Shown piece after piece: positions 4,887-51,201 of a stretch of DNA of 64,000 nucleotides. The stretch lies in contig CAZYQO010000002.1 in the NCBI GenBank assembly GCA_964649695.1, forward strand, positions 66,728 through 130,727, given 5' to 3'. The notes under the pieces were generated by a model. That model ran no database searches. It was not told the DNA's origin and was given only the letters and a program-made list of their open reading frames with translations. Made by a program: the position numbers and the translations under genes. How positions within the stretch are numbered: position 1 is the first letter of the stretch; every line of letters begins with the position of its first letter. This DNA is from an uncultured Candidatus Peribacteria bacterium (lineage in GTDB: Bacteria; Patescibacteriota; Gracilibacteria; Peribacterales; Peribacteraceae).

Positions 4887-4889
4887 GGG

Positions 4890-6170: not shown

Positions 6171-7378
6171 GAGCGGGTGGGGGAGGAGAGCAAGTGGTGA
6201 TAGATGTCTCGGATAAGTTTTGCCTGGTTGTGCCAGGTCAGGCGCTTGAGGACGCGGGGGGCTTCGATGCGCAGCTGTTGCGAGAGCACATGCTCGCGCA
6301 GGATGGTCATGATGCAGTCGGCCATTTTGCCGGTGTCCCAGTAGTCGACGGCAAATGCATGATCCAGCACTTCGCTGACGCCCGATTGTTTGCTGACCAC
6401 CACGGGTACGCCGTGGCCGATGGCTTCGAGCGCCACGAGGCCGAACGGCTCGCTGAGGGACGGCATCACAAAGCAGCTCGCATTCCGATACAACGCGTCT
6501 GCCTCCCTGCGGTTCACCTTGCCGGTGAACAGCATGCAGTCTTGCAGCCCCAGCGCGCATGTACGATCTAGCAGTTCGGGCAGCATGCCGCCTTCGCCGG
6601 CCATGACGAACTGTACGTCGGGTCGCAATGTGTGGATGACCGAGGCGATTTCCAGAAACTGCCAGGGGTTCTTTTGCACTGTCAGGCGCCCCAAAAAGAG
6701 CACCATGGGCGGCTTGTTCGATCCGAGTTGTGCCACGGGCGACGGCAGGATCTGGTCGTGGACATGGTGCCCGTTGTGTACGACGGAAATCTTGTCCGCT
6801 GGGATGCCGTAGTGCTGCACGATGAGGTTCTTCGTGTAGTTGCTGACCGCAATGATGCGGTCGGCGGATCGCAGGCCATGCATTTCGCGTTCAAAGATCC
6901 ACGGATGGGGCTGGAAGTTGGTGCGGTCGAGCTCGGTGGCATGGATGTGGGCGACGTGGGGCACGCCGTGGTGCTTCGCCGCGGTGATGCCCGCACCATA
7001 GGTCATCCAGTCGTGGGTGTGCACGATGTCGGGTTCCAGATGCGCCGTCACTTCCGCGCCGCGTTCGGCATAGCGCACGACAGCCTCTCCCATGTTCGGC
7101 CCATAGAGATCCTTCATGCCGGCGGAGATGGTGGAGACGCGTGTGGCGTAGGTTTCCACCGTGTCGTAGGGCAGCAGCAGTGAAGGCACTTGGATGACCG
7201 TGTGGCTTGCGTGCGGGTCGCCGTTGATGATCTCTCCGGTTGCGCCCATCGGCAGCACCAGGCTGACCTGCATGCCGTTGTGGAGCATGCCCTTCACGAG
7301 GCCTTCGCAGGCGACGCCCAATCCTCCCGAGTGATGAGGAGGATATTCCCAGCCGAACATGAGGCTATGTACGGACAT
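6167..7378 (-). CDS. Glycosyltransferase, GT4/GT5 glycogen-synthase-like
   Basis: 403 aa. N-terminal EYPPHHSGGLGVACEGL and C-terminal PSLSEPFGLVALEAIGHGVPVV (GT-B E-x7-E region). First gene of the GT-GH57-GH15 operon. Confidence 0.75.
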   Translation of the reverse strand: MSVHSLMFGWEYPPHHSGGLGVACEGLVKGMLHNGMQVSLVLPMGATGEIINGDPHASHTVIQVPSLLLPYDTVETYATRVSTISAGMKDLYGPNMGEAVVRYAERGAEVTAHLEPDIVHTHDWMTYGAGITAAKHHGVPHVAHIHATELDRTNFQPHPWIFEREMHGLRSADRIIAVSNYTKNLIVQHYGIPADKISVVHNGHHVHDQILPSPVAQLGSNKPPMVLFLGRLTVQKNPWQFLEIASVIHTLRPDVQFVMAGEGGMLPELLDRTCALGLQDCMLFTGKVNRREADALYRNASCFVMPSLSEPFGLVALEAIGHGVPVVVSKQSGVSEVLDHAFAVDYWDTGKMADCIMTILREHVLSQQLRIEAPRVLKRLTWHNQAKLIRDIYHHLLSSPTRS

Positions 7379-10326: not shown

Positions 10327-11999
10327 TGGGTGCAGAGGTTACAGCCTGGTTTGTAGCCCATCATTTTGAAGATGTTGTAGTACCACTCTGTCCCCGAGCA
10401 GCTCTGTTGGAAGCCGCCGTCCTGGGGCAGGAACACAGCCGCCCCATGCGAAGAAGTGGCTTTAGTAAGAGCAAAAGCCGGTTGGGAACCCAACACACTG
10501 CCAACGAATGCGGGTCGGTCGTTTCCCCATGGCGCACTCGAGAGGAGCGTCATGGTCGAGAAATTCTTGCGATAGACCTTGGTGACGCCGGTCATCAGTG
10601 TGTCGGTGGATTGCACCGGAACGCAGTTGTCGGTCTGGTTGGTGACACCCTCGAACTGCAATCCCAGCTGTGCCCCGATCTGATTCACTCTGGAGGCGCA
10701 GTCGAGGCAGTCGGTCGGTTTTTTGCCGTTCAGATTCCCGCCGGAGAGGAGGAGAAGATGCTTGTTGTTCAGGTAGAAGTTCTGCACCGCACTCAATTCC
10801 GTGGCGCTGAGTGCGGCTGACTGGTCGCCGCAGCCGTTCATAACCCAGAGGGCGTCGAACTGGTTGATGAATGCGCTGCTGAACGTCGGCAGCGACACGC
10901 GTGTGTGATAGGTCACGCTGTATCCCATGTTTTTCAGATCTGACACTTCGATCGGATCCGCCGACGTGGCAAAAGGCAGAGGCTGAAGATTCAGGATCAA
11001 AATCGAAGGTTGGTCATCCTGCGACGTGGAGCAGCGCGGATCCTGCGGAGTTACAGAGGAGGCCGATGACGTCGGCAAACCACATCGACTGCCTGTTTCG
11101 CACAGATAATTTTGCACGGGGAAAGCCGGGTCATTACAGCCGACATCGTGCCAGGTATCCCTTGCGCTCTGATGATTCATGAATGTGCAATCGTTCGCGG
11201 CAACGCCATAGTCGATGAATCTGCCATTGGGTTGCCCCCATGCGTATTTGCTGTACGCAAAGGGGAGGCCCGAAGTCCAACGGTATTCGCCTTCCTTCTG
11301 TATGTCGTTCAGTCCAATCCATACATTGGGTTTGTTGTTCAGTGCGGCATACGCCATATTATTCTCAATGTCTGAGAGGATGGTGGCGAGGTGTCCTCCC
11401 TTCGAAACGCAGGATGCTTCTGCCTGCTGCCAACTCAGTGGCGACGTCGAGGAATACACCGTATACCGCAGATCCGGTGTGCATACGGATGAAGACGAAG
11501 AAATGACCGAACTGCTCCGCGGAGAAGATGCAGCTCTGCTACTGCTATTGCGCGATGAAGATGTAGCTCTGCTACTGCTTGTCCCACCACCTCCTCCACT
11601 GCTTGATGTGGAGTTGGGGTTTTGCTGTACGACCGGCGCGCGGTCGTAAAGGCTGATCTTTGGTTTATTGTTGGCGTCCAACAATGCACATGAGACTCCT
11701 GTTTCCGAGTTGTTGGGTTGTGTGAAGGTATACGAACCGCTTACGCCATCGATACGCACATCACCCACTCCCTCCACGAAAAGCAGACAATACCCGTTCG
11801 GATAGCCATAACTGCTCAAGTCCCAATGGATGGTGAGCGGCGCATAGAATGGAGGGCCGGGGGGCAGATTTTGATCAATGAAATTGGCGGTGAGCCTTCT
11901 GGAATCGCTCAAGTGCGTATTGCTGAACACGGCAACACAGAGCACAAGTGCCAGGAGCGAACCCATGATCAGCGGACTGCGGCGAACCACGGTCGGCAT
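10323..11999 (-). CDS. Secreted protein (558 aa): signal peptide, Ig-like domain, Ser-rich linker, canonical C-type lectin domain, shared C-terminal ~220-aa domain
   Basis: CTLD hallmarks at aa 172-302: SWQQAEASCVSKGGHLATILS, VWIGLNDIQKEGEYRWTSG, WGQPNG...DCTFMN...WHDVGC...YLCE. The C-terminal domain is alignable to aa 64-292 of the 818-aa protein. A GGAG lies 9 nt upstream of the ATG. Confidence 0.8.
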   Translation of the reverse strand: MPTVVRRSPLIMGSLLALVLCVAVFSNTHLSDSRRLTANFIDQNLPPGPPFYAPLTIHWDLSSYGYPNGYCLLFVEGVGDVRIDGVSGSYTFTQPNNSETGVSCALLDANNKPKISLYDRAPVVQQNPNSTSSSGGGGGTSSSRATSSSRNSSSRAASSPRSSSVISSSSSVCTPDLRYTVYSSTSPLSWQQAEASCVSKGGHLATILSDIENNMAYAALNNKPNVWIGLNDIQKEGEYRWTSGLPFAYSKYAWGQPNGRFIDYGVAANDCTFMNHQSARDTWHDVGCNDPAFPVQNYLCETGSRCGLPTSSASSVTPQDPRCSTSQDDQPSILILNLQPLPFATSADPIEVSDLKNMGYSVTYHTRVSLPTFSSAFINQFDALWVMNGCGDQSAALSATELSAVQNFYLNNKHLLLLSGGNLNGKKPTDCLDCASRVNQIGAQLGLQFEGVTNQTDNCVPVQSTDTLMTGVTKVYRKNFSTMTLLSSAPWGNDRPAFVGSVLGSQPAFALTKATSSHGAAVFLPQDGGFQQSCSGTEWYYNIFKMMGYKPGCNLCTQ

Positions 12000-12026
12000 T
12001 CTACAGCACTCCGTGCCCGAAAGCCG

Positions 12027-14429
12027 CTAGCCTCGACGGTGTTTTCGCCGGATCCATGCCATCCCCGAAGCTGCTCCTGCAGCCATGATTCCCAGGGTGC
12101 CCGGTCCGGTAGCCCCCACAGGGGCGTGGCTGGCTGCAGGGTGTGGCTGCTGCTGCATCGGTTGGAGCTCTGCAGTAAGGGGTCGTAGTGGCGACACCAT
12201 GGCCGAGGAAGCGGTTCTGCTGCTGCCCGCGGAAGTGGGGGATTCCACACTGACAGTCGGCAGCGCGCGCATGGAAGAAACGGCTGTGACACTTGCTGTC
12301 GTACCTGCAGATAGGCATACGAAACATGGGGCATCGGCAATCTGGGCGCATCGCAGCCCATACCCGGTGCAATACGCCTGGCCGCCGATGGCGCAGGCGT
12401 CGACAGGGCATTGCTGTGCTATTGCCGCTGATGACGAACTTTCTGCACGTGCGATGTTGCTAACCGAAGAAGCGACTGCAATCGATGCAGACGAACGTAT
12501 GAAGGATGCTGCAGATGACGCTGTGGAAGACTCTATACTGGCCGAGGTGCTCGAATCAGTGGAGGAAATGCTGCTGCTTAAGGATTCCCCCGATACTCCT
12601 ACTTCCTGCACAGAGCTGGTGCTGGATTCCGTTGCTGCCATCTGCTGTTCAGAGGAGCTGCTGCCCAATAGAGCAGGAGCGGAAGACGGTATGGATGTGG
12701 CGGAGGAGGGGAGCTGCGGCGGCGGCAGCATGAATGGAGAGAGGGACGAAGAGGTGGATGAAAGTGATTGTTGCGACGAAAGCACCGAAGGCAATGATGA
12801 TGCGGTTACTCCGGCGGATGAAGCTGATTGGACAACAAGGGGGATCACCGGACCTGCGGAAAGCACGTCCTCGGGAAGAGTGCAGCATCGTGCGTAGCAG
12901 ATATTCGCTCCTGTGCCGCTTTTCTTAAGATTTCCGGTTTTACTGCATGCCCAGCCATCCGCTGTCGGCAAAGGCATGCTTTTATCCTGGTCATGATTGC
13001 TGGTGCTCTTATCTTCAAAGCCTCCACCGGTTACAAAGGTTCCCGGTGGGCAGTAGGCGATGGACTCCGGATCCTGTGCGCCGATGACCGATGTCGTTTT
13101 GCATACCATGATGTCGGATGTTTTTCGTTTACCACAAAGAGCAAAGCACCGGCTGCCGCTTTGTTGCTTGGAATCATCGTCGTAGCATGTCCAGCCGTTG
13201 GATTCATCTTGTGGTGCGAAGATGTCTTCGTCTTTTCCTGTTGTCCCGTCGATGAATCCGCCCCCTAGCAACTGTCGGTCAGGGGAGCAGGTGGGTGTCA
13301 GATGGTCACTGAGCCCTCCTTCGCGGTACACAATCGTGGAGTCATACAGGTTTGCATCGCAGCAGATAGCCGTGCAAGTACCCAGTGCATCGTCGCGGTT
13401 GCCTGTGCATTGCCAGCCGCCACCTTCTTCGAATGGCATGGATTGATCGAAGGTTTCGCCACCGCCATTGTTCCACCCGCCGCCCATAATGACGGTGCCT
13501 TTTGGACACGCCACTTTCACGGCACCGGATCCATAGAGCGAACGTTGAACAAACGTGCAGCTGCCGCCTGCAATTTCAGTAGTGATGGGCACGGAGACCG
13601 GATCCTTGCAGGTGACCGCATGACCAAGAAAATCGAAGATTCGTTTATAGAGCAGGCCGTCCTTGCCCGAGCATTGTGCTGAGAATCCCTGATCCTGTGG
13701 GCTGAACACGGCACCTCCGTGATTCTCATCCGGCGGGATGATCGCAAGCGCAGGCTCCTTGTTTTCGGGTATTTCTCCGATGAATTCCGGCTTTGTCTTG
13801 CCCCAGGCGACAGAGCCAATGGTCATTTTCCCACTGGATTCACGGTAGATTTTCTCGATGTTATTAAGCAAGACACTTCCACTTCCTCGTATCGTCCGAC
13901 AGGAGTTTGCGCTGTTCTCGTATCGCACGCGCCCAGAGAATGTGATGCCCAAATTTTCGGAAATATCATTGATGCGTGTCTGGCAATCGGCGCCAGCCGG
14001 GCCGAGATCCCCGCCGGCGTAGTCGTCGCCACCACTGAGAATCAGGCTGCCGCCCTTCAGGTAAAAGTCTTTGATGACGGCAACTTCTCCTGATTTGAAT
14101 GGGTATGATTCCCCGCCGCAGCCTCCATGGATCCAAAGTATGTTATATGAGGACAGCACATCTTTGGTGATTGTTTTGACCGAGAGGTGATTTTCGAGGA
14201 CAACGCCCGTACCCACAAGCGCTTTGATGTCCTGGAATTCTTGCACTTCGCCGTCACGACCGTACAAATTGGGCTGTGCGTTGAAATACAGTATGCGAGG
14301 GGGTGTGCAGGCAGTGTTTACAGTGGTATTGGAAATTTGAGCTTTCCAAGTATCGGGGAAGAACATCGTGAAGCTGCAAATAGTTCCAATGATGAGCGCG
14401 CCATAACTCCAGTAGATCTTCGGTTTCAT
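12027..14429 (-). CDS. Large modular cell-surface protein (about 800 aa): signal anchor, shared ~230-aa domain, 3x CPxG-GGGF-GWxC module, Ser-rich stalk, 1x 36-aa Cys repeat, C-terminal sorting-signal-like tail
   Basis: The ORF track starts at GTG 14483. ATG 14429 (MKPKIYWSYGALIIGTICSFTMFF) gives a typical signal anchor. C-terminal HAPVGATGPGTLGIMAAGAASGMAWIRRKHRRG matches the tail of the 925-aa protein. Confidence 0.75.
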   Translation of the reverse strand: MKPKIYWSYGALIIGTICSFTMFFPDTWKAQISNTTVNTACTPPRILYFNAQPNLYGRDGEVQEFQDIKALVGTGVVLENHLSVKTITKDVLSSYNILWIHGGCGGESYPFKSGEVAVIKDFYLKGGSLILSGGDDYAGGDLGPAGADCQTRINDISENLGITFSGRVRYENSANSCRTIRGSGSVLLNNIEKIYRESSGKMTIGSVAWGKTKPEFIGEIPENKEPALAIIPPDENHGGAVFSPQDQGFSAQCSGKDGLLYKRIFDFLGHAVTCKDPVSVPITTEIAGGSCTFVQRSLYGSGAVKVACPKGTVIMGGGWNNGGGETFDQSMPFEEGGGWQCTGNRDDALGTCTAICCDANLYDSTIVYREGGLSDHLTPTCSPDRQLLGGGFIDGTTGKDEDIFAPQDESNGWTCYDDDSKQQSGSRCFALCGKRKTSDIMVCKTTSVIGAQDPESIAYCPPGTFVTGGGFEDKSTSNHDQDKSMPLPTADGWACSKTGNLKKSGTGANICYARCCTLPEDVLSAGPVIPLVVQSASSAGVTASSLPSVLSSQQSLSSTSSSLSPFMLPPPQLPSSATSIPSSAPALLGSSSSEQQMAATESSTSSVQEVGVSGESLSSSISSTDSSTSASIESSTASSAASFIRSSASIAVASSVSNIARAESSSSAAIAQQCPVDACAIGGQAYCTGYGLRCAQIADAPCFVCLSAGTTASVTAVSSMRALPTVSVESPTSAGSSRTASSAMVSPLRPLTAELQPMQQQPHPAASHAPVGATGPGTLGIMAAGAASGMAWIRRKHRRG

Positions 14430-14652
14430 GTGCGAGAAGAATTCTACCCTGTTTTCATTTTTTGAGGCTAGTGAGAGCCACACACCTCAGTCGGTGTCTG
14501 TTGGGCTATCGTTTGTTCTTAAAAATTTACACAAAGTACATAATAATTTCTAATACTATTTGTACATACTATTTTACCGTAAAACACATACTCTCCTCCA
14601 TTCTGTAACAGCGTTTTTTAGGGCTCCCTCTAGAGCAAAAATGCACTTTTTC

Positions 14653-14661
14653 TGCTATAAT
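14653..14661 (+). promoter_or_regulatory. Extended -10 promoter element TGCTATAAT
   Basis: TGCTATAAT lies 7 nt upstream of TTG 14669 (20 nt upstream of ATG 14681), in the AT-rich divergent intergenic region. It is identical to the element at 21324-21332. Confidence 0.4.
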
Positions 14662-14668
14662 CAAGAGA

Positions 14669-16984
14669 TTGGCTACTTCCATGGAAAATACAAATAGCGC
14701 ACCATTGGCTGATACCGAAGGATGGCGCTGGCTAGAGCGGCCAGATGTCACACATTTGCCATTTGTGAGGCCACAAAATGTTCTGCAGTCACAGTCGATA
14801 GATGGGCAGCCGAAAGTGGCGCAGAGAATGGCGAGTGTTTTTGTGCTGACACATGCAGAACATGTGAATCTGCCCCACATCATTTCACGACTGAGCGATG
14901 TACTGATCAAGGCAGGGGAGCAGTTTGAGTTGATAGTGATCGATGAGGGTAATTTTTATCTGAACACGCAGGATTATCTACGTGGTATCGCAGAGCAGTT
15001 GCCGCTGCAGGTTATCAAACCGGCCGTGCAGGGGGCTTTGACAAGTGCCGATCTTGAAAAGGCAAACGGTGATCGTCTCGTGATATTCGATGCGGATTTG
15101 CACCACGCACCCGATGTGATTGTGGACATGTTGCATGCTTTGGAGCAGCAAGATGTCGTTGTGGGTAGAGTTCCCTTGAAACGGATGCCATGGTACCGCG
15201 CAGTTCAGACAGTGTGTAGCAGGCTTCTCCTTCTGCCTGTCGCCTCGCTTTTTGCGGGAGTGCCACAGCCTGGCCAGCGTGCTTATCGAAGGGATGCCCT
15301 TAGTAAACTTGCTCAGTTTCGTCGATTCCGGGCGCAAGCTGCATTCGATACACAAGCACTCTTTTTTGCTAGACGGCTAGGATTGCGCGTTGGGTACGTA
15401 GAGGAGACTCTTGAGCCGGGCATTCTCTTTGGATGGACTGCACGACGCACGACGCGTCAGCTGACTGTCATGGGTGCAATCTATGCGTTGCGAGCAATCA
15501 TGATGACAGAGTTCGCGATGCCGTTCTTGTTCCCGCCAACACGCGCTGAATATTCAGCTTCAGGATTTACCAATGTGCGTGATTTTCTTTTTCTGTCGGA
15601 CTCAGAGAGTGCAAAGCAACACATCACTAAGGAAACAGTTACTTTGTGTTTTTGGGTAATCTTGCTAACTACACTCTGTATCGTAGGGGCAGCAGCGCTG
15701 TTCCAACAATCATGTCTTCGAGTTGTTCTAACGATGTTTTCAATGTTGTATCTTGCGCTGCTTTTCATAAAGCTATTTGTGACAATTCGAAGCACAAAAC
15801 ATTCGTATCTGCACGTTTCTCCCGCAGAAATCGCAACATTAAGTCCTCAGGATTTTCCCGTCATTTCCATACTCATTCCGTTGTACCGCGAACGCGAGAT
15901 TATCCCTCAAATCTGCCGCCGCCTTGCGGATCTTGATTATCCTGTCGATAAGCTTGATATAATTTTTATCTTAGAGTCGACCGACCGAGAAACCATCGAC
16001 GCGTTCCTCACAGCTAGGCCTCCGACGCATTTCAAAGCGCTACTTTCCCCTGATGTGCTACCAAAAACAAAGCCAAAGGCTCTCAATGTCGCCTTCCAAA
16101 AGTCGCGCGGTGAAGTAGTCGTAATTTACGATGCTGAGGTGTTGCCTGAGTTGGATCAGCTCAAGAAGGCCTGCTTTGCCCTGAAGAAGTATCCGGAGGT
16201 AATGTTCGTGCATACCCGATTGAACGTATATAACGCTGAATATAACTGGCTTACAAAGCTCTACACGGCCGAATTCTCTTTTTACTATGATTCATTCATT
16301 AATGGTTTAGTGAGCTTAAACATTCCTCTTCCCATCTCCGGTCACAGCATTTATTTCCGTCGCCACGTCATTGAGCAGGTTGGAGGTTGGGATCCCTATA
16401 ACGTTGCAGAAGATTGTGACATTGGTATTCGTATTTTCCGCCATGGTTTTGGGTGTGGAATTATGATCGATTCTTTTGCTTGGGAGCAATCCACCACAAC
16501 CATTCCCGCATGGGTGTCACAGCGTACTCGTTGGCTGAAGGGATTTTTGCAAACCACAATGGTGCATTTACGCTTCCCATTGCTGCTTAAGCAGGATGTT
16601 GGTGGATGGCGTAATTTTCTGTGGTTCCTGATTCTTGTTCCGGGGACAACCTTGGTAAATGCGCTTAATCTTCTCCAGTCTATTTTTCTGCTTGCGTGGT
16701 TTGTAACACATTCTTTGTATATCGAACTCGCATACGAGGGCTTGCCAATTTATGCAGCTATGTTCACCTTCATTGTTGGGAATTATCTCTTTACATTTTT
16801 TAACATATTAGGACTCTACACACGGGGGCTCTACGCCATCATGCTTTTGGCATACTTTTCGCCATTCTATTGGATTATGCTTGGCTATGCTACCGTGCGA
16901 TCCATTCTTGAGTTTTTCTTTGCACCGCGCCGTTGGAATAAAACAGTGCATTCAATGGCATCGACTAGTATCGCTAATACATAA
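14669..16984 (+). CDS. Two-domain membrane glycosyltransferase: N-terminal Dpm1/Ppm1-like GT2 fused to a processive (D,D,D,QxxRW) GT2 synthase with C-terminal TM helices
   Basis: Domain 1 (aa ~57-170): FELIVIDEGN ... LVIFDADLHHAPDVIVDML. Central TMs follow. Domain 2 (aa ~397-625): VISILIPLYRERE, VVVIYDAEV, NVAEDCDIGIRI, QRTRW at 16520-16534. The start may instead be ATG 14681. Confidence 0.75.
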   Translation: MATSMENTNSAPLADTEGWRWLERPDVTHLPFVRPQNVLQSQSIDGQPKVAQRMASVFVLTHAEHVNLPHIISRLSDVLIKAGEQFELIVIDEGNFYLNTQDYLRGIAEQLPLQVIKPAVQGALTSADLEKANGDRLVIFDADLHHAPDVIVDMLHALEQQDVVVGRVPLKRMPWYRAVQTVCSRLLLLPVASLFAGVPQPGQRAYRRDALSKLAQFRRFRAQAAFDTQALFFARRLGLRVGYVEETLEPGILFGWTARRTTRQLTVMGAIYALRAIMMTEFAMPFLFPPTRAEYSASGFTNVRDFLFLSDSESAKQHITKETVTLCFWVILLTTLCIVGAAALFQQSCLRVVLTMFSMLYLALLFIKLFVTIRSTKHSYLHVSPAEIATLSPQDFPVISILIPLYREREIIPQICRRLADLDYPVDKLDIIFILESTDRETIDAFLTARPPTHFKALLSPDVLPKTKPKALNVAFQKSRGEVVVIYDAEVLPELDQLKKACFALKKYPEVMFVHTRLNVYNAEYNWLTKLYTAEFSFYYDSFINGLVSLNIPLPISGHSIYFRRHVIEQVGGWDPYNVAEDCDIGIRIFRHGFGCGIMIDSFAWEQSTTTIPAWVSQRTRWLKGFLQTTMVHLRFPLLLKQDVGGWRNFLWFLILVPGTTLVNALNLLQSIFLLAWFVTHSLYIELAYEGLPIYAAMFTFIVGNYLFTFFNILGLYTRGLYAIMLLAYFSPFYWIMLGYATVRSILEFFFAPRRWNKTVHSMASTSIANT

Positions 16985-16986
16985 CT

Positions 16987-18732
16987 ATGCGTAACCCCTT
17001 TTTACTCAAAGGCGCAGAACGTGATGAGTTTTTGCTTATGTTAGTTGTGGCAGCCTTAGGCATATGCACTCTTTGGAACGTGATTGACGATAACATGATG
17101 TATTTCGACTTTGATACACGCTCACATTTGAACGTTGCACGCATGACTCTCGATAATTTAACGCCAGGGTTCAACCAGCTGGGTATTTGGAATCCACTGT
17201 TGCATATATTACTGCAGCCATTTATTTGGGTGTGGCCATTTTACACGTCGGGTGTCGCTGGCTTTTGTCTGCTTATCCCATGTCTATTTCTCAGTGTCGT
17301 CTTCCTTAGGCGTATTATTGTCGAATTGACCACCAATGAACTTTTGGGATCAGCAGGCGGTTTATTATTAGCTTTACATCCTTATGCGCTCTTTTTTGCA
17401 GTCGTGCCGATGACTGAGATGTTGCAAATGACATGCAATCTTGGTTCTGCATATTTCTTAACTCTTTGGCTGAAGAGATCTAGCTTGAAATTTTTGTTGT
17501 ACAGCGGCCTCTTTGCAGCGCTTTCCTGTATGGCTCGTTTTGAAAGCCTTGGACTAGCGCTTGCGATTGGCATTGTCATTGTCATTCATGGCCAATTTCT
17601 TCATAAGAAGGTTTCTGAAATTTTTGCACTATTACAATTATTTTTTCTCGTAGCTTTGCTAGGGATGGCATATTTGGTCATTTATGGAGTGGCATATATG
17701 GATGGGCCACTATCATTTTTGTCACTTGCGTCTTCTTCTGAGGTGGCGCAGCAAAAAACATTGTTGTTTACATTTCAAATTGTTACACATGGACTATTTC
17801 ATATTCATGGCATTCAACTTCTTATAGGCGCAATATGCGCCATCCTGGTGCTTATATTTTTTGCGCGTTCGTTTAAAGAGGAATTGTACGTGCTTTTTGT
17901 CCTTATCAATCCACTTATTGTGGTCTTTTATGCACTTTATACAAAGGCAGGAGTAATACTTTGGGTTCCCGAGCTTCCAAGAATAAACACAGGTCCACCC
18001 ATTGGATATTTTGCAGGAATTAGATTCCTATTGAGCTCAACGCCGTTTGTACTTTTAAGTATTTTTTTGGGGTTGTCTCTAATTCTCAAATATGCAGCCA
18101 GGCTAAATCGTTCGTATGTTCAAGTTTTGGTCATAGTTGTAGTGACATTTTTTATCGGCTCACAATCCATGCGTCTATTCAAAATTGAAAATGCAGCATT
18201 TCCTGCGGCTCAAAAAAGTTCTCAAACCGCATTTGAAATGCGTTTTCATCTGCAAATTGCTGAATATTTAAAAAATAATTACGATTATGGTTTAATCATT
18301 TATTCTCGTATCTCATCAGATATCTTGCAATATCATGCTCAGATCCCGCTAAAAAATTATATCTATACTGCAAACTATCCATATTTTGACCAAGCAGTTC
18401 GTTTTCCTTGGCTATTTTTGCGGTGGGTCATTCTGCCAACTACAGAAACATCTGGTCTATTGGTTGATATGAAGTATTCCGATGATTTTAATAAGTACTT
18501 TGAAAAAGTGCTTGCAGTTCCCGCCACTAAGCTCAAAGGATTTACAGTGTATCGACTGAGAGAAGATATCTTGCGAGAAGATTTGCTTAAATATCATGTC
18601 AATACTCAGGAAGTGCCTTCACTATGGAAGGTGACTCGCACATGGGATACGAATAATATAAACAGGATTCTTCATCTAGAAGATTCACCTTGGCACATTG
18701 AAAGAAGGTATAGCTCTACTAAAAAGTTATGA
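16987..18732 (+). CDS. GT-C superfamily membrane glycosyltransferase (ArnT/PMT-like, polyprenyl-phosphate-sugar dependent)
   Basis: 581 aa with more than 10 predicted TM helices. It has an acidic first-loop motif (VIDDNMMYFDFDTRSH) after TM1 and a C-terminal soluble domain. It starts 2 nt after the upstream gene. Family assignment rests on architecture and motif only. Confidence 0.55.
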   Translation: MRNPFLLKGAERDEFLLMLVVAALGICTLWNVIDDNMMYFDFDTRSHLNVARMTLDNLTPGFNQLGIWNPLLHILLQPFIWVWPFYTSGVAGFCLLIPCLFLSVVFLRRIIVELTTNELLGSAGGLLLALHPYALFFAVVPMTEMLQMTCNLGSAYFLTLWLKRSSLKFLLYSGLFAALSCMARFESLGLALAIGIVIVIHGQFLHKKVSEIFALLQLFFLVALLGMAYLVIYGVAYMDGPLSFLSLASSSEVAQQKTLLFTFQIVTHGLFHIHGIQLLIGAICAILVLIFFARSFKEELYVLFVLINPLIVVFYALYTKAGVILWVPELPRINTGPPIGYFAGIRFLLSSTPFVLLSIFLGLSLILKYAARLNRSYVQVLVIVVVTFFIGSQSMRLFKIENAAFPAAQKSSQTAFEMRFHLQIAEYLKNNYDYGLIIYSRISSDILQYHAQIPLKNYIYTANYPYFDQAVRFPWLFLRWVILPTTETSGLLVDMKYSDDFNKYFEKVLAVPATKLKGFTVYRLREDILREDLLKYHVNTQEVPSLWKVTRTWDTNNINRILHLEDSPWHIERRYSSTKKL

Positions 18733-19769
18733 AAACAAAATTACTATTTTGGGCAAAATTGGCAAAAGAAATTATTTTGAGAGTATCTGCATCCCTGCAA
18801 GATTGGGCATTTATGCTTCGTGTTCGGCCATCTCTATTGAGAGGCAGTAATTTTGTTGAGTTCTTGCGCGAATCTGCCGAATTTCCTGGGGGTATATACA
18901 ATCCGGGTGCAATCGAAGTTCATGGAGCTATTGTGACAGTCTTAAGGGGCGAGCAGTATCGTCCATTCCAATTGTATATAGATTCAACGAAAGCTCTGAA
19001 TTCATGTACCCCACTTCTGGCTTCATACAGTCAAGAAATGCAGCTAAAAAAACCACTGACTAAGCTCTCCCTGGCAGCCTTCCCCGAAAGAAGGACTCAG
19101 CGTTATGAAGATTTTAGATTATTTAGATTTCGAGATAAGATTTTTTCCAATCTTTGTGTTTTTATTCCAAATACAAATTCAGTTTGGCCTTCGGCCATTG
19201 ATTCGGGTAATTACAATCGTCAAGCTCTAGCTGAATTGGACTTACAAAGTATGAGTCTGAATTATGCAAAAGAAGTGCAAATAGATTTTCCCATGCATGG
19301 CCGAGAGAAAAATTTCATGTATTTTGAACACGAAGAAGATCTATATTTGCTGTATTCAATTTGTCCCTATATTTTGCTAAAAGCTCAAAATTGGCCTAAT
19401 GCTAATTTCGTAACAGTACTTCATAAAGAGCTGAATTTGTCTTTTGGTAAAAATAATCAACAAAAAATTCACTTAAGTACAAATCCAGTCGTGCTTGATG
19501 ATAAATATTTGGTCACAATTATCTCTCGTAAAGCCCACGGTTATGGGATATTTAAGACATTGTTCTCCACATGGGTCATTCTAATCGATCGTGCTACTCT
19601 AGAGCCGGTGAAAATCTCGAAACAATGCTTGACCTCAGGGCTCAGTGTATATTTTTCGAGTCTTATCGTCGAAGGCGATAGTTTGCTACTTTTTGGCGGT
19701 CAGGATGATAGGCGCTGCTGCTTTACTCGCTTGTCTAAAAAGGCGATCGAATTCGATAACATCGAATAG
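18729..19769 (+). CDS. Hypothetical protein, possibly a GH130/DUF377-like beta-propeller glycan-active enzyme
   Basis: 346 aa. Start overlaps the upstream stop (ATGA). Weak motif resemblance only: GIYNPGAI, YEDFRLFRF (like EDPR), REKNFMYFE (like EKNW.pF). Confidence 0.35.
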   Translation: MKTKLLFWAKLAKEIILRVSASLQDWAFMLRVRPSLLRGSNFVEFLRESAEFPGGIYNPGAIEVHGAIVTVLRGEQYRPFQLYIDSTKALNSCTPLLASYSQEMQLKKPLTKLSLAAFPERRTQRYEDFRLFRFRDKIFSNLCVFIPNTNSVWPSAIDSGNYNRQALAELDLQSMSLNYAKEVQIDFPMHGREKNFMYFEHEEDLYLLYSICPYILLKAQNWPNANFVTVLHKELNLSFGKNNQQKIHLSTNPVVLDDKYLVTIISRKAHGYGIFKTLFSTWVILIDRATLEPVKISKQCLTSGLSVYFSSLIVEGDSLLLFGGQDDRRCCFTRLSKKAIEFDNIE

Positions 19770-19809: not shown

Positions 19810-21213
19810 TTACAGGTTGCTGAAGTTGGCCTTTGAGCGTCGACGGATATCGGGCAACGAAGAAGCGATCTGCTGTTTTGTTGCATCGCTCGTATTTAAG
19901 GTTTTTTGTATGTGTGAAGACAGCGAGGGGACATGCATGACTTCTTCGGACGGGATGCTGCAATCCCTAAGCTTAAACATTTGAAGTAAGCCCTCAAATT
20001 TGTCTTGATATGTAATGCAAAATACGGGCACCCCTGTGTTGAGACACTTGATTGCTAGATGCATTCTTCCTGTGATTGTGCAATCAAGTTTTGAGCAAAT
20101 GAATTGCAGCTCAGATTGGGAAAAAACGGGTGGCACGATTTGAACCTTTTTCTTTAGCGACACCGGCAGTCCCTCGAGAATGAGGGTAGCCATAGTGCGG
20201 TCACTGTTGGCGTCAATCTTTCGCGTGTCGTGCGGTATCAACACAAAACAGATACGCTCGTACATTTCGGCGCAATCCGTGATAGTTTGAATATACATTT
20301 TAATGATACGATCACTGCCGCCTTCGTATGACATTGCGTTGTGAATACTTGGATTTATGCCAATTACCAATTGGTTATTTGTCTTCTGTTCCAGTAGCCA
20401 ATCTAGAAAGTCATTGTTCGTAGGTTCTTCGCTTTTCAGAAGAAATGCAACATCTGCCACTTCTTCAATATGCCGACCGGTGCAGATCTGCAATCTCTCA
20501 TGTGATATAGGATCGCGCGCACAAATGCGTACATTAGTGGATAGACGCCTTAAGTCTTGGACTACAGAACAGACGGGGTGAGCATTAAAGCTGCTTCCCA
20601 ATATTGTTGTGCTGTTGCCGAACTTAGCGGCTGCATTGGTCAATGCAATCCGAAGACGTGAGCCTATTTCTGAATAGGCACCATCAATGACATCTGCGCC
20701 GATACAGAAAAAGTAGTCGTGTAGCTGAATGGCTCGCACGGTTTTGAATATTGACAAAGGCGAGAATGCGCCATGCCAAGGGAACATTAATGACACCCCA
20801 GCGCTGGCTAGTTTTGGGTTCATAAAATCCCATTCATGTTTGTCTGCGGCGGATAAATATCTGACAGTATCGATTTTCATTTTTAGAATTTCATCGATTG
20901 TTACCCTCATCATTGTTTCGTCGCCTAAGCTGCCCGGAAATGAAGGCGGTAAAATAAGTGCAGTGCGTTTTGTTTTTGTCTGCTTTCCAAGCCACTGCGA
21001 AACAATTATTGCTATCCATAATATGGATCTAAAATATGCAAGAAGTAAAAAGGTACACGCTTGGATGCAGACTGTAGTCAGCACAGGAAAATATGCATGC
21101 GTAACACGAGTAATTCGAGTAAGCTTCCACGTATCGGTAGAGTAGTGTTGACATGTCAACTCGCATGTTTTTTTAATATTTAATTCCACTTCGATTGGCA
21201 TAGTGTGACTCAT
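19810..21213 (-). CDS. Polysaccharide pyruvyl transferase family protein with N-terminal TM segment
   Basis: PPSFPGSLGDE, CIGADVIDGAY and TGRMHLAIKCLNTGVPVFCITYQDKFEGL blocks typical of CsaB/WcaK-type pyruvyl transferases. TM segment at aa ~45-75. Confidence 0.65.
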   Translation of the reverse strand: MSHTMPIEVELNIKKTCELTCQHYSTDTWKLTRITRVTHAYFPVLTTVCIQACTFLLLAYFRSILWIAIIVSQWLGKQTKTKRTALILPPSFPGSLGDETMMRVTIDEILKMKIDTVRYLSAADKHEWDFMNPKLASAGVSLMFPWHGAFSPLSIFKTVRAIQLHDYFFCIGADVIDGAYSEIGSRLRIALTNAAAKFGNSTTILGSSFNAHPVCSVVQDLRRLSTNVRICARDPISHERLQICTGRHIEEVADVAFLLKSEEPTNNDFLDWLLEQKTNNQLVIGINPSIHNAMSYEGGSDRIIKMYIQTITDCAEMYERICFVLIPHDTRKIDANSDRTMATLILEGLPVSLKKKVQIVPPVFSQSELQFICSKLDCTITGRMHLAIKCLNTGVPVFCITYQDKFEGLLQMFKLRDCSIPSEEVMHVPSLSSHIQKTLNTSDATKQQIASSLPDIRRRSKANFSNL

Positions 21214-21339: not shown

Positions 21340-22440
21340 ATGGCAGATCTTGAGAAAGAAAAAAATATCAATTCAACACCTGATATAAATGCGCCTGTTT
21401 TTTTAGATACAACAGGTGGATCGTTATCAGATTCACCTGCCAAAGTGGTGGTGCCGCAAAGTGCTATGCTAAGTATAGCAAGTGATCATTTTGGGGTGGC
21501 AGAGGTCAACATCAAATCATCACAATCCTGCATTTCTCCATGGAAATTTACTTCAGCTGCTTGCGCAGCTTTAGTACTGGGAATGCTATTTATGTATTTA
21601 GTGTTATCTTTTTTTAGACCAAATCACTCCGGCTCTTCGGATGCAGCAAAAGATAGTTTGGCAACGCGTTTTTTGGCTTCAGGAGCAGAATTGACCATCG
21701 TCAATGACGATGGTAAGGATTTGAAGGTAACCAAAGCAGCCGAGGCTCCTGATCCGTTACTCATCACAGGTGTTTCCTTTGGTACAAATGCGGACACGTC
21801 TGTTTTAGAGGAGATTTATCAACTTCGGAGCCTCCGCAATCTTACAATCTCGAATGTTGAAATTAGTCAGTCAAATTTGGTTTCTTATCTTAAGCAAGCG
21901 AGTGCGTCTGTTACTTCGTTGCAGCTGTCGCAGCTGCCCGATATTGATGTAAATGATGAGCTGATAGAGGTGATCCGCACTTCTTTTCCTGCTCTTAAAA
22001 CACTCAGCATCAAGGGATTAACAGTATCAGAGGGAAGTATTGCGGGCATAGCAAAAATGCCATATTTGCAGATATTAAATCTTGCAGACACGAATCTTAC
22101 GGATGCTGAACTTTACGCACTGAAAAACATGAAATTGGCATCCCTTGATGTAAGTATGACGAAGGTGACAGCTCATGGCCTCATTCAAATGCGTCCCTAC
22201 GTCAAGACACTGAGTCTAGCTTCTTTAGATATAAATGATGAGGATATTAAATTAATTGCAAATTATTTTCAGATTTTACAAAAGCTAAATATTGCCGCCT
22301 CAAATGTTTCTGATGATAGTGTTCCTTTAATCCAAAACATGGCTCAACTCACATCATTAAACATAAAAGAAACAAAGATTTCTTCTTTTGGGATTATCAA
22401 GATTCAACAGAGTTTGCCTGGCTGCAAAATTACAAAATGA
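21340..22440 (+). CDS. Single-pass membrane protein with leucine-rich repeat (LRR) ectodomain
   Basis: TM at aa ~70-92 (AACAALVLGMLFMYLVLSFF). About 9 LRR units (LRNLTISNVEIS.., LKTLSIKGLTV.., LQILNLADTNLTD..). C-terminal IKIQQSLPGCKITK. Confidence 0.7.
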   Translation: MADLEKEKNINSTPDINAPVFLDTTGGSLSDSPAKVVVPQSAMLSIASDHFGVAEVNIKSSQSCISPWKFTSAACAALVLGMLFMYLVLSFFRPNHSGSSDAAKDSLATRFLASGAELTIVNDDGKDLKVTKAAEAPDPLLITGVSFGTNADTSVLEEIYQLRSLRNLTISNVEISQSNLVSYLKQASASVTSLQLSQLPDIDVNDELIEVIRTSFPALKTLSIKGLTVSEGSIAGIAKMPYLQILNLADTNLTDAELYALKNMKLASLDVSMTKVTAHGLIQMRPYVKTLSLASLDINDEDIKLIANYFQILQKLNIAASNVSDDSVPLIQNMAQLTSLNIKETKISSFGIIKIQQSLPGCKITK

Positions 22441-22458: not shown

Positions 22459-24456
22459 TTATTTATTAATAACGCATTTTGGCATGTTTTTTTGCAACTG
22501 TTGGAGCCCCATTGGAGACAGTTGTGTGCTTGTTACATTAAGACTGGAAAGCGTCTCGATTGCACTCAGTGTGGGTACTGAACGGTCGGAGATTAGTGTT
22601 TTTGCCAAGGATAAATAGGATAGCTTCATGGCTTTGAGGTTCGTGACCATTTCGTCATTAACCTTGACGCCATCAAGTCGCAAAACCTTAATAGGAAGCT
22701 TCGAAATAATCTCGAGTGTCCTTGATCCGGCATTTGTATTGGAAATAGACAGAACCTCAAGGTTCTGTAATTGGGCGATTGAAGAAAATTCAGCGTCACC
22801 CGCTGCACAATCGGTTATTTTTAGAGATGTGAGTCCGCGCAATTGTCCGAGATATGCCATCCAAGCCAAATTTTGGCTCTTACTTGCCGTAATGCTAGTA
22901 ATGGAAAAATCTCCGGGCGGAAGATCTTTTGCGTTGCCCACGCTTCCTGGAGCGGATGGTGATCCTGATGTTGTAATTTTCACTCCAGCAAGCAGGAGTT
23001 GTTCTGCGAACTTGCGTTCAAATTTTGCCTGGTTATCGTTTGTGGGTGCCACCTCTGCTGCTGGTGGAGTGCTGGCGGCAGTTGGAGCAACAGGAGGCAC
23101 AGCCGTGGCTCCGGCAACATCGAGTGTTGCTGATCTTGGTTCGATATGTGGATTCTTGGTAAAGATGTCGTTCACTGTTACCAGTGAGATGCCACCAAGG
23201 CCGTGTTTTTTGGCCTCAGAAAACATATGGCCAGCAAATAGCTTAAAGCTATTTTGCAAAGCAGAGTCTGACATTGCTTGCGCGTCCTGCCATGCTTTCA
23301 GGCCAGCTTGAAAGAATCCGTCAGCGCCGATAGCGTCGACTTTCTTTCCTGTGGCCGGATCTACTTCAGGGTCGTATTTCCTAATAAAGGGGCTTTGGCC
23401 AAGACGCAGATGATATAAGGCGCTTTCCCATTTATTTTCGATGAATGCATATTCGCCCAAACTCTTATGCCCCTCGGTGTCCAATGGGGTCTTTTTCCCT
23501 ATAGCAATAATCGCTTTGTTCGTAACACCTAGTTCTCGATTGATGCCCTTCGCATCGTCGATAAGCTCGCTCTCGCGGATATCGGAGGGATTTTTGTTTA
23601 TGAAAGTCTGCACTAAAGGTTGCACGAGAGGGGTAATTTTGCGTGCTGTTGCCAAATCCTCATCGTCGCGCTTATCGGAGGGCAGATCTATATATCTATT
23701 GAGATAGAGCTGTGCGCAATTGAGGCGGCTTGCCGCAAGATCGATACGCAATGCAGCATTGTTGCGCATTGTTGGATGGCTGCTGGCGCCAGTGAGCGTG
23801 GCAACACGCAATTTGCGGATAGTGGCAGCTGTTTCAATGCCTTCTTGCTCCATGGCTGCAATTTCTGTTAATGCCATTTGATATTCGCCGTCGGCATTCA
23901 GTAGACGGATGTGAGCGTTGCCTTCCAGTGATCGTTCGCTCTTTGAATAAAGCATGCTTGTGCCGTTTGCCAACCGGCTATTGCCAATGAATGAAAGCGC
24001 AAGTGACTGAGCTTCCGCGCTTTTGCTTTGTCTTGCAACACTCCATGCTTCTTGGGCAATTGCTCGCAAGAGAGCGGGTGAATTTTTGGCCTCATCAAGA
24101 ACAGACACACCTATGATCCGTTGCACGAGGACAGATCCTTTTTCTGGCGTTGGCTGCATGCTGAACGCAGCGTATTCTTGCTGCAATAGGGCTTTCAGTT
24201 GCTGGATATTCATATCAATTTCCTTCGCGCTGGGTGGCGGAATTGGGATTTCCTGTGCAGAAGAGTCTGCGGCAGCGACAGTGGCAACGACCTTACTGGG
24301 GGTTTCCTCTGCACTCGAATGAGCAGCAGTATTTCCCAGTACACCCAAAAGAATGCTGTAGCGTAGTGCTTTCGTGATGCTGCCTGGAAGCCGCACATTT
24401 GCTTCCTTTTCAGGAGTATGGGGTTGCTCGCGATCTTGATGATCTAGATAGCCCAT
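22459..24456 (-). CDS. Secreted/anchored protein with helical central region, Ala/Pro linker and C-terminal LRR domain
   Basis: LRR units LTSLKITDCAAGD.., LEVLSISNTNAG.., LSYLSLAKTLISD... C-terminal LQQLQKNMPKCVINK parallels the neighbouring LRR protein. ATG 24456 is preferred over TTG 24492 because a TTGACA-N17-CACAAT promoter spans 24472-24500. Confidence 0.65.
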   Translation of the reverse strand: MGYLDHQDREQPHTPEKEANVRLPGSITKALRYSILLGVLGNTAAHSSAEETPSKVVATVAAADSSAQEIPIPPPSAKEIDMNIQQLKALLQQEYAAFSMQPTPEKGSVLVQRIIGVSVLDEAKNSPALLRAIAQEAWSVARQSKSAEAQSLALSFIGNSRLANGTSMLYSKSERSLEGNAHIRLLNADGEYQMALTEIAAMEQEGIETAATIRKLRVATLTGASSHPTMRNNAALRIDLAASRLNCAQLYLNRYIDLPSDKRDDEDLATARKITPLVQPLVQTFINKNPSDIRESELIDDAKGINRELGVTNKAIIAIGKKTPLDTEGHKSLGEYAFIENKWESALYHLRLGQSPFIRKYDPEVDPATGKKVDAIGADGFFQAGLKAWQDAQAMSDSALQNSFKLFAGHMFSEAKKHGLGGISLVTVNDIFTKNPHIEPRSATLDVAGATAVPPVAPTAASTPPAAEVAPTNDNQAKFERKFAEQLLLAGVKITTSGSPSAPGSVGNAKDLPPGDFSITSITASKSQNLAWMAYLGQLRGLTSLKITDCAAGDAEFSSIAQLQNLEVLSISNTNAGSRTLEIISKLPIKVLRLDGVKVNDEMVTNLKAMKLSYLSLAKTLISDRSVPTLSAIETLSSLNVTSTQLSPMGLQQLQKNMPKCVINK

Positions 24457-24471
24457 AACTGTATGGCGCTC

Positions 24472-24500
24472 ATTGTGAGCATTATGTGGCAAATTGTCAA
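24472..24500 (-). promoter_or_regulatory. Sigma70-like promoter TTGACA-N17-CACAAT
   Basis: On the minus strand, TTGACA (24495-24500) and CACAAT (24472-24477) are spaced 17 nt apart. ATG 24456 lies 15 nt downstream of the -10. Confidence 0.45.
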
Positions 24501-51089: not shown

Positions 51090-51201
51090 CTCATTTTCCA
51101 CGGCGTCAGTGGATTTTTTTTGCTGCGTAGACTTGGTTATTTCACAAGATTTTGCTACAATACCAAGAACACAACATTCACAACCTTCACCTCTTCTCCG
51201 T

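Follow-up and report, generated by a model that had tools for sequence, protein, structure and literature searches.

A polymer synthase and GT-C glycosyltransferase module shared by Candidatus Peribacteria and monoderm phyla, and its possible role in decorating a surface glycan

A stretch of 64,000 nucleotides from an uncultured Candidatus Peribacteria bacterium (assembly GCA_964649695.1, contig CAZYQO010000002.1, positions 66,728 to 130,727; hereafter, the window) carries a three-gene operon with glycosyltransferase features, raising the question of what its products glycosylate. The operon encodes a two-domain GT2 membrane protein (P1), a polytopic GT-C glycosyltransferase (P2) and a soluble GH130-like protein (P3), in three plus-strand open reading frames (ORFs) at 14669/14681-16984, 16987-18732 and 18729-19769. 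A reading made from the sequence only had described these genes as translationally coupled and divergent from an operon of surface proteins, and this arrangement was verified. P1 and P2 are separated by a 2-nt gap (TAA-ct-ATG), P2 and P3 overlap by 4 nt (ttATGAaa), and the operon diverges from the minus-strand gene at 12027-14483 across an AT-rich spacer of approximately 185 bp. The sequence-only reading had primarily proposed that, in the manner of actinobacterial Ppm1 and Pmt, the operon O-mannosylates the Ser-rich products of that neighbouring operon, and had offered an exopolymer system as the alternative; it is this alternative that the evidence favours. Our tentative answer is that the operon belongs to a conserved, uncharacterised module, in which production of a cell-surface glycan by the synthase route is coupled to glycosylation outside the membrane.

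P1 (14681-16984, plus strand) comprises 767 amino acids from the ATG at 14681, in an ORF that reaches a TTG at 14669. Its N-terminal GT-A domain (approximately residues 50-232; 14828-15376, plus strand) had been likened to polyprenyl-phosphate sugar synthases of the Dpm1/Ppm1/GtrB type on account of an FDADLHHAPDV motif. The motif is present, and all seven matches of the domain in the PDB are polyprenyl-phosphate glycosyltransferases, namely PfDPMS (the Dol-P-Man synthase of Pyrococcus; 8.6e-10), ArnC and GtrB. A DxD motif (DAD, residues 137-139 of 767) aligns with the DAD of PfDPMS and ArnC, and searches against NCBIfam returned ArnC (1.6e-8) and PgfS, with both matches under their cut-offs. 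These data assign the domain to the Dpm1/ArnC/GtrB type. A transmembrane hairpin identified by hydropathy scan (residues 322-366; 15644-15778, plus strand) lies between this domain and a second GT2 domain and, because it separates them, both catalytic domains are expected on the same side of the membrane, presumably the cytoplasmic one.

The earlier description of P1 as a fusion was correct for the first domain and left the second half of the protein undescribed. This half (15827-16906, plus strand) contains a complete processive-synthase GT2 domain of the PgaC/BcsA type with C-terminal transmembrane helices. It matches the Pfam families PF13641 (Glyco_tranf_2_3, 6e-27) and PF13632 (Glyco_trans_2_3, 1e-23), covers model positions 35-387 of 407 in TIGR03937 (PgaC_IcaA, 3.9e-22) and aligns with BcsA structures over residues 375-708 (1e-8); a match to GT21, the ceramide glucosyltransferase family, was also obtained (3.8e-13). 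The synthase motifs YDAE (DxD, 483), AEDCD (ED, 576) and QRTRW (QxxRW, 614) are invariant in 16 homologues, and the hydropathy scan shows a 2+3 architecture, with two helices before the synthase domain and hydrophobic helices after it. At the sequence level, none of the hallmarks of a processive PgaC/BcsA-type synthase that exports its own product is missing from the C-terminal domain. Equivalog level was not reached for either PgaC (78.8 bits, against a cut-off of 422) or CelA (52.5, against 699), and Escherichia coli NfrB was ruled out as the family of the synthase domain (21% identity, E 0.004). The scores fall far under every equivalog cut-off, so that no synthase of known product is matched at that level.

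More than 50 of the 120 listed P1 homologues are full-length proteins with the same two-domain architecture, and the named ones belong to the Candidate Phyla Radiation (CPR, Patescibacteria). The best species-level match, with 57% identity, is from an uncultured Candidatus Peribacteria genome, and database labels on P1-like proteins read 'cellulose synthase/PNAG synthase-like' (PNAG, poly-N-acetylglucosamine) or 'XagB'.

P2 (16987-18732, plus strand; 581 amino acids) has just eight word-indexed homologues among 5.8 billion proteins. An AlphaFold2 (AF2) model built from these homologues (pLDDT 78.7, pTM 0.79), together with Foldseek, identified a polytopic GT-C fold with a soluble C-terminal domain at approximately residues 415-581. 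The top 41 Foldseek matches in the PDB are all GT-C proteins (STT3/PglB/AglB, DPY19, ALG9/12, ArnT, AftB/AftD, PMT and Emb), with E-values down to 4e-8, in agreement with the GT-C assignment made from the sequence; the outcome that would have refuted it, absence of a GT-C fold, was not observed. The ranking among GT-C classes is weak, with TM-scores of about 0.5 throughout, and in it PMT structures fall behind oligosaccharyltransferases, DPY19, ALG and ArnT. The Pfam PMT_2 match of P2 (E 0.009, 16.7 bits) lies below the threshold of 26.1 bits, which by the Pfam measure places the protein outside GT39. The acidic first-loop motif DDNMMYFDFD to which attention had been drawn is present at residues 34-43, but D43 is its sole acidic residue conserved in homologues. 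Both D43 and D56 are invariant in the eight homologues, as is a further block (HLN-x-AR / TPG-x-x-Q-x-G-x-W-x-PLLH). The first loop is predicted to be extracytoplasmic from the GT-C topology and from weak positive-inside counts.

Comparative analysis of related loci associates this GT-C protein with the polymer synthase. In a synthase-seeded set, 80 species-representative genomes were retrieved and scanned with purpose-built hidden Markov models, and a GT-C homologue was detected directly downstream of the synthase in 34 of the 74 assessable loci. This arrangement was observed in every CPR (12/12) and Chloroflexota (4/4) locus, in eight of the nine from Bacillota, in 7/20 from Actinomycetota, in 2/15 from the Planctomycetes-Verrucomicrobia-Chlamydiae (PVC) group and in 1/10 from Proteobacteria. 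An independent, GT-C-seeded set comprised 79 metagenome loci, some of them on near-duplicate contigs. Synthase and GT-C are fused in one polypeptide in 12 of these 79 loci; the synthase lies directly upstream of the GT-C gene in 20, lies elsewhere within 10 kb in 18 and is absent in 11, its position being not assessable in the other 18. The fusion proteins (approximately 1,180-1,230 amino acids, from metagenomic loci L114, L117, L119, L121, L123, L138, L142, L155-L157, L166 and L167) are good targets for structural work, and a Dpm1-like gene follows the fusion gene in at least six cases (L114, L117, L119, L121, L123 and L142).

Where the Dpm1-like GT2 is encoded differs between groups: in the CPR it forms part of the synthase polypeptide, and in Paenibacillus, Cohnella and Sporolactobacillus a separate neighbouring gene encodes it. 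In Amnibacterium endophyticum, a 1,114-residue protein encoded directly after a synthase homologue (L050, 11294-14635) fuses a Dpm1-like GT2, a GT-C and a GH5 cellulase-family domain. On this genomic evidence, the three enzymes (synthase, GT-C and Dpm1-like GT2) are connected in different phyla, both as neighbours and through fusions in all pairwise combinations. In the whole set of approximately 160 related loci, adjacency and fusion tie the GT-C to the synthase, and also to glycanases of families GH8, GH5 and GH6. GT-C-GH8 fusions were found in five loci (L004, L014, L015, L021 and L092), a separate GH8 gene after the GT-C gene in three (L005, L016 and L020), and GH6 adjoining the module in two. 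Because of these adjacencies, fusions, glycanases and other neighbours across loci, the GT-C is best explained as working with the synthase on a polysaccharide.

Other recurrent neighbours were also observed. Among the cognate hydrolases of cellulose synthase systems, BcsZ is a GH8 and CslZ a GH6 enzyme. The clostridial cellulose hydrolase CcsZ belongs to GH5 (10.1101/837344). MshEN cyclic di-GMP (c-di-GMP) receptor domains are present on synthase homologues from outside the CPR, and a GGDEF protein is encoded beside one of them; both features are typical of exopolysaccharide synthases (PMC5013675). In four Bacillota cases, the gene immediately upstream of the synthase encodes ManC, the GDP-mannose synthase. 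A pyruvyl transferase is a recurrent accessory (found close by in L005, L006 and L009 and in seven metagenome loci), and tandem GT-C paralogues, two to four in number, occur in 16 loci. In one relative only (L005), a small membrane protein of 107 amino acids with a LAB_N domain (PF07578) is encoded just upstream of the GT-C gene (4233-4556) and is a candidate flippase for the lipid-linked sugar; nothing equivalent to it is encoded in the window. In CPR relatives, genes for T4SS-pilin-like (T4SS, type IV secretion system), PrgI-like and TraC-like proteins recur no more than a few kb from the module (L002, 4218-4619; L009, 16668-18104; L006, 10791-12147). Two loci binned as 'uncultured Gammaproteobacteria' (L015 and L018) contain a CPR-type synthase and GT-C, with 42-45% identity to the synthase domain of the window, yet their binning places them elsewhere; they are probably mis-binned.

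The synthase family is also found in diderm lineages, mostly without a detectable GT-C. In Mariprofundus ferrooxydans PV-1 (L055, 6891-13888), the locus encodes a BcsB-like protein, a synthase homologue, a 510-residue polytopic protein without a Pfam match and a GH113 enzyme, and a membrane protein of approximately 500 amino acids often occupies the GT-C position in diderm loci. Homology of these diderm polytopic proteins to the GT-C was not supported, with hhalign probabilities of 3% and 20% against the GT-C profile.

The components of the module recall two kinds of known systems. With the synthase-dependent systems (BcsA/BcsB/BcsZ, the clostridial CcsA/CcsB/CcsZ, CslA/GlxA/CslZ of Streptomyces and PgaC/IcaA for PNAG), it shares a membrane GT2 that bears the D, DxD, ED and QxxRW motifs and has a transmembrane channel of its own, a cognate GH8, GH5 or GH6 glycanase beside the synthase in relatives, c-di-GMP receptor domains on homologues from outside the CPR, and the lack of Wzx/Wzy or an ATP-binding cassette (ABC) transporter. 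It differs from them in that the co-partner of the synthase is a GT-C rather than BcsB, CcsB, IcaD or GlxA, and in that a polyprenyl-phosphate sugar synthase is fused or adjacent. Clostridial CcsB was considered as a possible GT-C and ruled out, since it consists of two transmembrane helices and an extracellular domain. The second group encompasses GtrA/GtrB/GtrC, CsbB/GtcA/YfhO, GacI/GacJ/GacL, PpgS/Rv3779 and ArnC/ArnT, in which, as proposed here, a GT2 of the Dpm1/GtrB type makes a polyprenyl-phosphate sugar and a GT-C passes this sugar on to a polymer at the external face of the membrane. In the known three-component systems the acceptor polymer comes from a separate Wzy, ABC or lipoteichoic acid pathway, whereas in the module the synthase that makes the acceptor adjoins the GT2 or the GT-C, or shares a polypeptide with one of them. 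Two further differences concern the window, whose low-GC island around the operon has no gene for a GtrA-type flippase and which belongs to a clade whose GT2 has lost a loop Asp discussed below. The module thus merges a synthase-dependent pathway with extracytoplasmic glycosylation of the Gtr type, each domain coming from a known superfamily.

The third gene of the operon encodes a soluble protein of 346 amino acids (P3; 18729-19769, plus strand) with the motifs NPGA, EDFRLF, EKNF/W and GxxDD, for which weak GH130-like features had been proposed. That proposal holds at family level. P3 alone returned no Pfam match even at E<10, and inclusion of its one close homologue, the single relative retrieved by a word-indexed search, yielded only a chance Kelch match; a metagenome scan with the resulting two-sequence alignment gave no match. 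An exhaustive profile search among 1.84 billion representative proteins identified 182 relatives, which define a rare family, and a profile of 36 members matched GH130 structures only (17/17 PDB matches). The best of these was a beta-1,2-mannobiose phosphorylase (2.9e-8), and others were Lin0857, 1,2-beta-oligomannan phosphorylase and the mannoside synthase Uhgb_MS. Twelve of the 36 family members match Pfam GH130 (PF04041) at a relaxed E<=0.1, the best at 1.2e-8. The kinship of P3 with GH130 is accordingly suggested by the family profile and not by its own sequence.

The motifs NPG, ED-x-R and EKN are invariant in the P3 family and, aligned with those of GH130 beta-mannoside phosphorylases and dual mannosyltransferases (7fip, Lin0857 and Uhgb_MS), they (the last as K/R-N) fall at what we take to be the sugar- and phosphate-binding positions. 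Unlike these enzymes, P3 itself is under every Pfam threshold, and its branch is a rare one of 182 representatives in which fusions to GT2, GT4 or FkbM methyltransferase domains are frequent. The hydropathy scan detected no signal peptide, transmembrane or hydrophobic segment in P3, and an AF2 model from the single sequence (pLDDT 35) was unusable for assessing a beta-propeller fold. Because it lacks a hydrophobic segment, and because relatives are fused to GT2, GT4 and FkbM domains, P3 is predicted to be cytoplasmic, and sequence comparison suggests a biosynthetic rather than catabolic role for this branch. Phosphorylase and mannosyltransferase activities are both known in some GH130 enzymes (PMC12814180).

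In the reading that we favour, the synthase domain of P1 would polymerise a beta-linked backbone from a nucleotide sugar and thread the chain through its own channel. The presence of GH8, GH6, GH5 or GH113 partners in relatives makes a backbone of the beta-1,4 glucan or mannan type probable. The Dpm1-like domain would charge polyprenyl phosphate with a sugar, probably mannose in view of the ManC adjacency in Bacillota, the DPMS-like N-terminal domain, the PMT_2-like GT-C and the GH130 and GH113 partners, although all four pointers to mannose are circumstantial. The lipid-linked sugar would then be flipped, and the GT-C, at the exit of the channel, would transfer it onto the emerging polymer. 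In this lineage, the cytoplasmic GH130-like phosphorylase/transferase and a membrane-anchored pyruvyl transferase encoded beside the operon would add lineage-specific chemistry.

Several observations weigh against this reading, which is built on sequence, structure prediction and comparative genomics. The highest-ranked fold matches of P2 are oligosaccharyltransferases, and en-bloc transfer of a finished chain fits them equally well; a near-obligatory GT-C partner is, moreover, unusual for a mere decorating enzyme. The D-x-x-S-G-L-K loop of the N-terminal domain has its Asp replaced in P1 (VPQPGQRAY), so that the acidic residue before the (F/L)-(R/K) motif is not kept. The acid is missing in 5/5 members of the clade to which the window belongs, whereas the Asp is kept in 11/11 other CPR fusions. 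In GtrB, the Asp of that loop is D157, and the D157N variant is inactive (PMC4728340); the alignment does not fix the equivalence of D157 with the P1 loop position. Pairwise identity within the clade is 34% for the N-terminal domain versus 64% for the synthase domain, compared with 40% and 55% in the other CPR fusions, indicating that the N-terminal domain evolves faster than the synthase domain in this clade. Judged from these sequences, the Dpm1-like domain may be impaired or altered in the lineage of the window, in which case the lipid-linked donor might come from elsewhere. Many synthase and GT-C loci also lack a nearby Dpm1-like gene, so that this enzyme is only a putative source of the donor. 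The low-GC island in which the operon is located, described below, encodes no GtrA-type flippase, and the operon contains no GH8, GH5 or GH6 gene. Finally, backbone chemistry is only loosely constrained, because the partner hydrolases are a mixture of cellulase-type families and the GH113 mannanase. The copy in the window is an atypical member of the module. It encodes a GH130-like protein in the place of the GH8 enzymes of relatives, its Dpm1-like domain may be impaired, and it lies in a low-GC island.

This island spans approximately 14.5-24.5 kb, with a GC content of 0.35-0.50 compared to 0.55-0.65 outside it. In base composition, with a flanking GC of about 0.60, and in its genes, the window conforms to a CPR bacterium of the Peribacteria type. 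Its left edge is the AT-rich divergent intergenic region (14484-14680), with the Ser-rich operon on one side and the glycosyltransferase operon, which opens the island, on the other. A promoter scan of this spacer gave a single weak promoter-like match (14519-14547), not above chance, and matches in the promoter and terminator scans were no more numerous than in shuffled sequence. Convergent with the operon lies a gene for a polysaccharide pyruvyl transferase (19810-21213, minus strand; PF04230, 3.9e-14), which is WcaK/CsaB-like and has one N-terminal transmembrane segment. Two leucine-rich-repeat proteins (21340-22440, plus strand; 22459-24492, minus strand) complete the island; one has a transmembrane anchor, and the other a signal-like N-terminal segment when judged by eye, yet the hydropathy scan found no hydrophobic segment in it. 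The island encodes no Wzx/Wzy, phosphoglycosyl transferase or GtrA-like protein, and has neither free coding space nor an unassigned small ORF, which bears out the earlier statement that Wzx/Wzy and an initiating phosphoglycosyl transferase are missing. A related contig (L006, 1-8000) presents identical gene order, with the leucine-rich-repeat pair again after the pyruvyl transferase, and an identical GC dip. The dip common to both suggests either an old, unameliorated acquisition or a composition kept locally, as in O-antigen loci.

The divergent Ser-rich operon (7549-14483, minus strand) lies outside the island, with a GC content of 0.55-0.575. Its three proteins had been described as carrying long Ser-rich stalks. 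Each contains 13-14.5% Ser and Ser-rich stretches, but the stretch of the middle protein is only about 45 amino acids long. The Ser-/Cys-rich proteins at 12027-14483 and 7549-10326 (both minus strand) end in HAPVG[AS]TGPG, a hydrophobic helix and RRK/RRRR, a tail that looks like a sortase-type sorting signal with a non-LPXTG motif. A C-type lectin domain (Pfam, 1.8e-14) is found in the middle protein (10323-11999, minus strand), which lacks a C-terminal anchor. Approximately 230 amino acids of this protein form a module also present in the upstream protein, and a Cys-rich module of approximately 245 amino acids is common to the first and third proteins. For Candidatus Peribacter, a GC content of 58.5%, Myxococcus-type cysteine-rich repeats and a sortase A have been reported along with cysteine-rich extracellular proteins (PMC4736985); the sortase-type tails fit this description, and the large Cys-/Ser-rich exported proteins of the window match those reported. 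Upstream of this operon, a cluster encoding GH15, GH57 and GT4 proteins (2841-7378, minus strand) resembles glycogen/alpha-glucan metabolism and is unrelated to the finding. Further along the window, a DUF4015 putative glycoside hydrolase (51109-52530, plus strand; Pfam, 2.8e-58) is encoded beside a tRNA cluster (50.1-53.7 kb; tRNA-Lys, tRNA-Arg and three tRNA-Gly).

The main rival to decoration of a synthase-made polymer is en-bloc transfer, which we regard as unlikely. Here the Dpm1-like domain would prime polyprenyl phosphate, the synthase domain would extend and export the chain, and the GT-C would ligate the whole chain to its final acceptor, possibly peptidoglycan, a membrane lipid or a protein. 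Having the Dpm1-like and synthase domains in one polypeptide would channel the primer directly, and the distribution of the GT-C, near-obligatory with the synthase in monoderms and mostly absent in diderms, fits an anchoring step that monoderms need. There is precedent for such transfer in the synthase-dependent O:54 antigen of Salmonella (WbbE/WbbF and WaaL) and in AglJ/AglB of Haloferax, which use dolichol-monophosphate-linked glycans. The best fold matches of P2, the STT3/PglB/AglB oligosaccharyltransferases, point in the same direction, but with a TM-score of about 0.5 for all GT-C classes their rank discriminates weakly. A single ligation step hardly accounts for the two to four tandem GT-C paralogues of 16 loci, which fit stepwise decoration better, and many loci are without a nearby Dpm1-like gene. 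Furthermore, the synthase apparently needs no lipid primer, because its family also occurs in diderms mostly without a detectable GT-C and has a BcsB-like partner in M. ferrooxydans.

The remaining explanations assign the GT-C other acceptors. In the O-glycosylation originally proposed, the Dpm1-like domain would make polyprenyl-phosphate mannose and the GT-C would modify the three divergent surface proteins. The actinobacterial Ppm1/Pmt pair does glycosylate proteins, and the window shares with it, and with GtrB/PgtC2 or Pgf of streptococci, a polyprenyl-phosphate sugar synthase, a GT-C and nearby Ser-rich exported proteins. Streptococcal GT2 and GT-C pairs (GtrB/PgtC2) modify Ser/Thr-rich regions (PMC12041528). 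The Ser-rich stretches and sortase-like C-terminal signals are real, the GT-C has a weak PMT_2 match, and in L004 a GH6 enzyme with Ser-rich linkers adjoins the module. That match is nonetheless below the Pfam threshold (16.7 versus 26.1 bits), and none of the related loci has homologues of the Ser-rich proteins beside the module; other Ser-rich ORFs near it in the genome loci are unrelated to those of the window, the one examined being that GH6 enzyme. The Ser-rich operon is also off the island, whose gene order and GC dip recur in L006. The conserved partners of the GT-C, adjacent or fused, are a polymer synthase and glycanases rather than protein substrates, and the proposal, which had overlooked the synthase domain of P1, leaves that domain without a role. 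It is hence unsupported, and we consider it improbable. Only a slim chance is likewise given to a lipomannan-like lipoglycan, for which the second GT2 would make a membrane glycolipid anchor, to be extended outside by one or more GT-C enzymes from a polyprenyl-phosphate sugar. The GT21 match of the synthase domain (3.8e-13), the resemblance of multiple tandem GT-C paralogues to the logic of mycobacterial lipomannan and lipoarabinomannan, and the heavy investment of Peribacteria in isoprenoid synthesis (PMC4736985) agree with it. Against these stand the invariant full set of QxxRW, ED and DxD motifs with a PgaC-like 2+3 transmembrane architecture, and the MshEN/c-di-GMP control and endoglycanase partners that are typical of secreted polymers.

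Textbook accounts give bacterial surface polysaccharides four routes of synthesis (Wzx/Wzy, ABC transporter, synthase and extracellular sucrase), and regard extracytoplasmic glycosylation by GT-C enzymes as something added late to polymers that other pathways have made. Here, gene order and fusions of every pair, across the CPR and three large monoderm phyla, bind a processive synthase to a GT-C and a polyprenyl-phosphate sugar synthase. This points to one machine in which a glycan would be polymerised, exported and branched in a single pass. No description of such a module was found in the searchable literature, which leaves out most subscription journals and is thus weak evidence of absence. 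A bolder form of the decoration reading, possible but speculative, is a hybrid assembly route with co-translocational branching. A GT-C docked on, or fused to, a processive synthase would glycosylate the nascent chain at the channel exit with a polyprenyl-phosphate sugar from the Dpm1-like domain of the same complex, and this would be the main surface-glycan route of many CPR bacteria and a common one in Chloroflexota, Bacillota and Actinomycetota. Since carriers in culture include Paenibacillus macquariensis ATCC 23464, Cohnella, Sporolactobacillus and Amnibacterium endophyticum, the module is directly testable. The GH130-like family of P3, because its members are fused elsewhere to GT2, GT4 and FkbM domains, may be an unrecognised biosynthetic glycosyltransferase-like domain. 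For the CPR, with their tiny genomes and their host-attached, mostly unculturable cells, the module may specify the main surface glycan.

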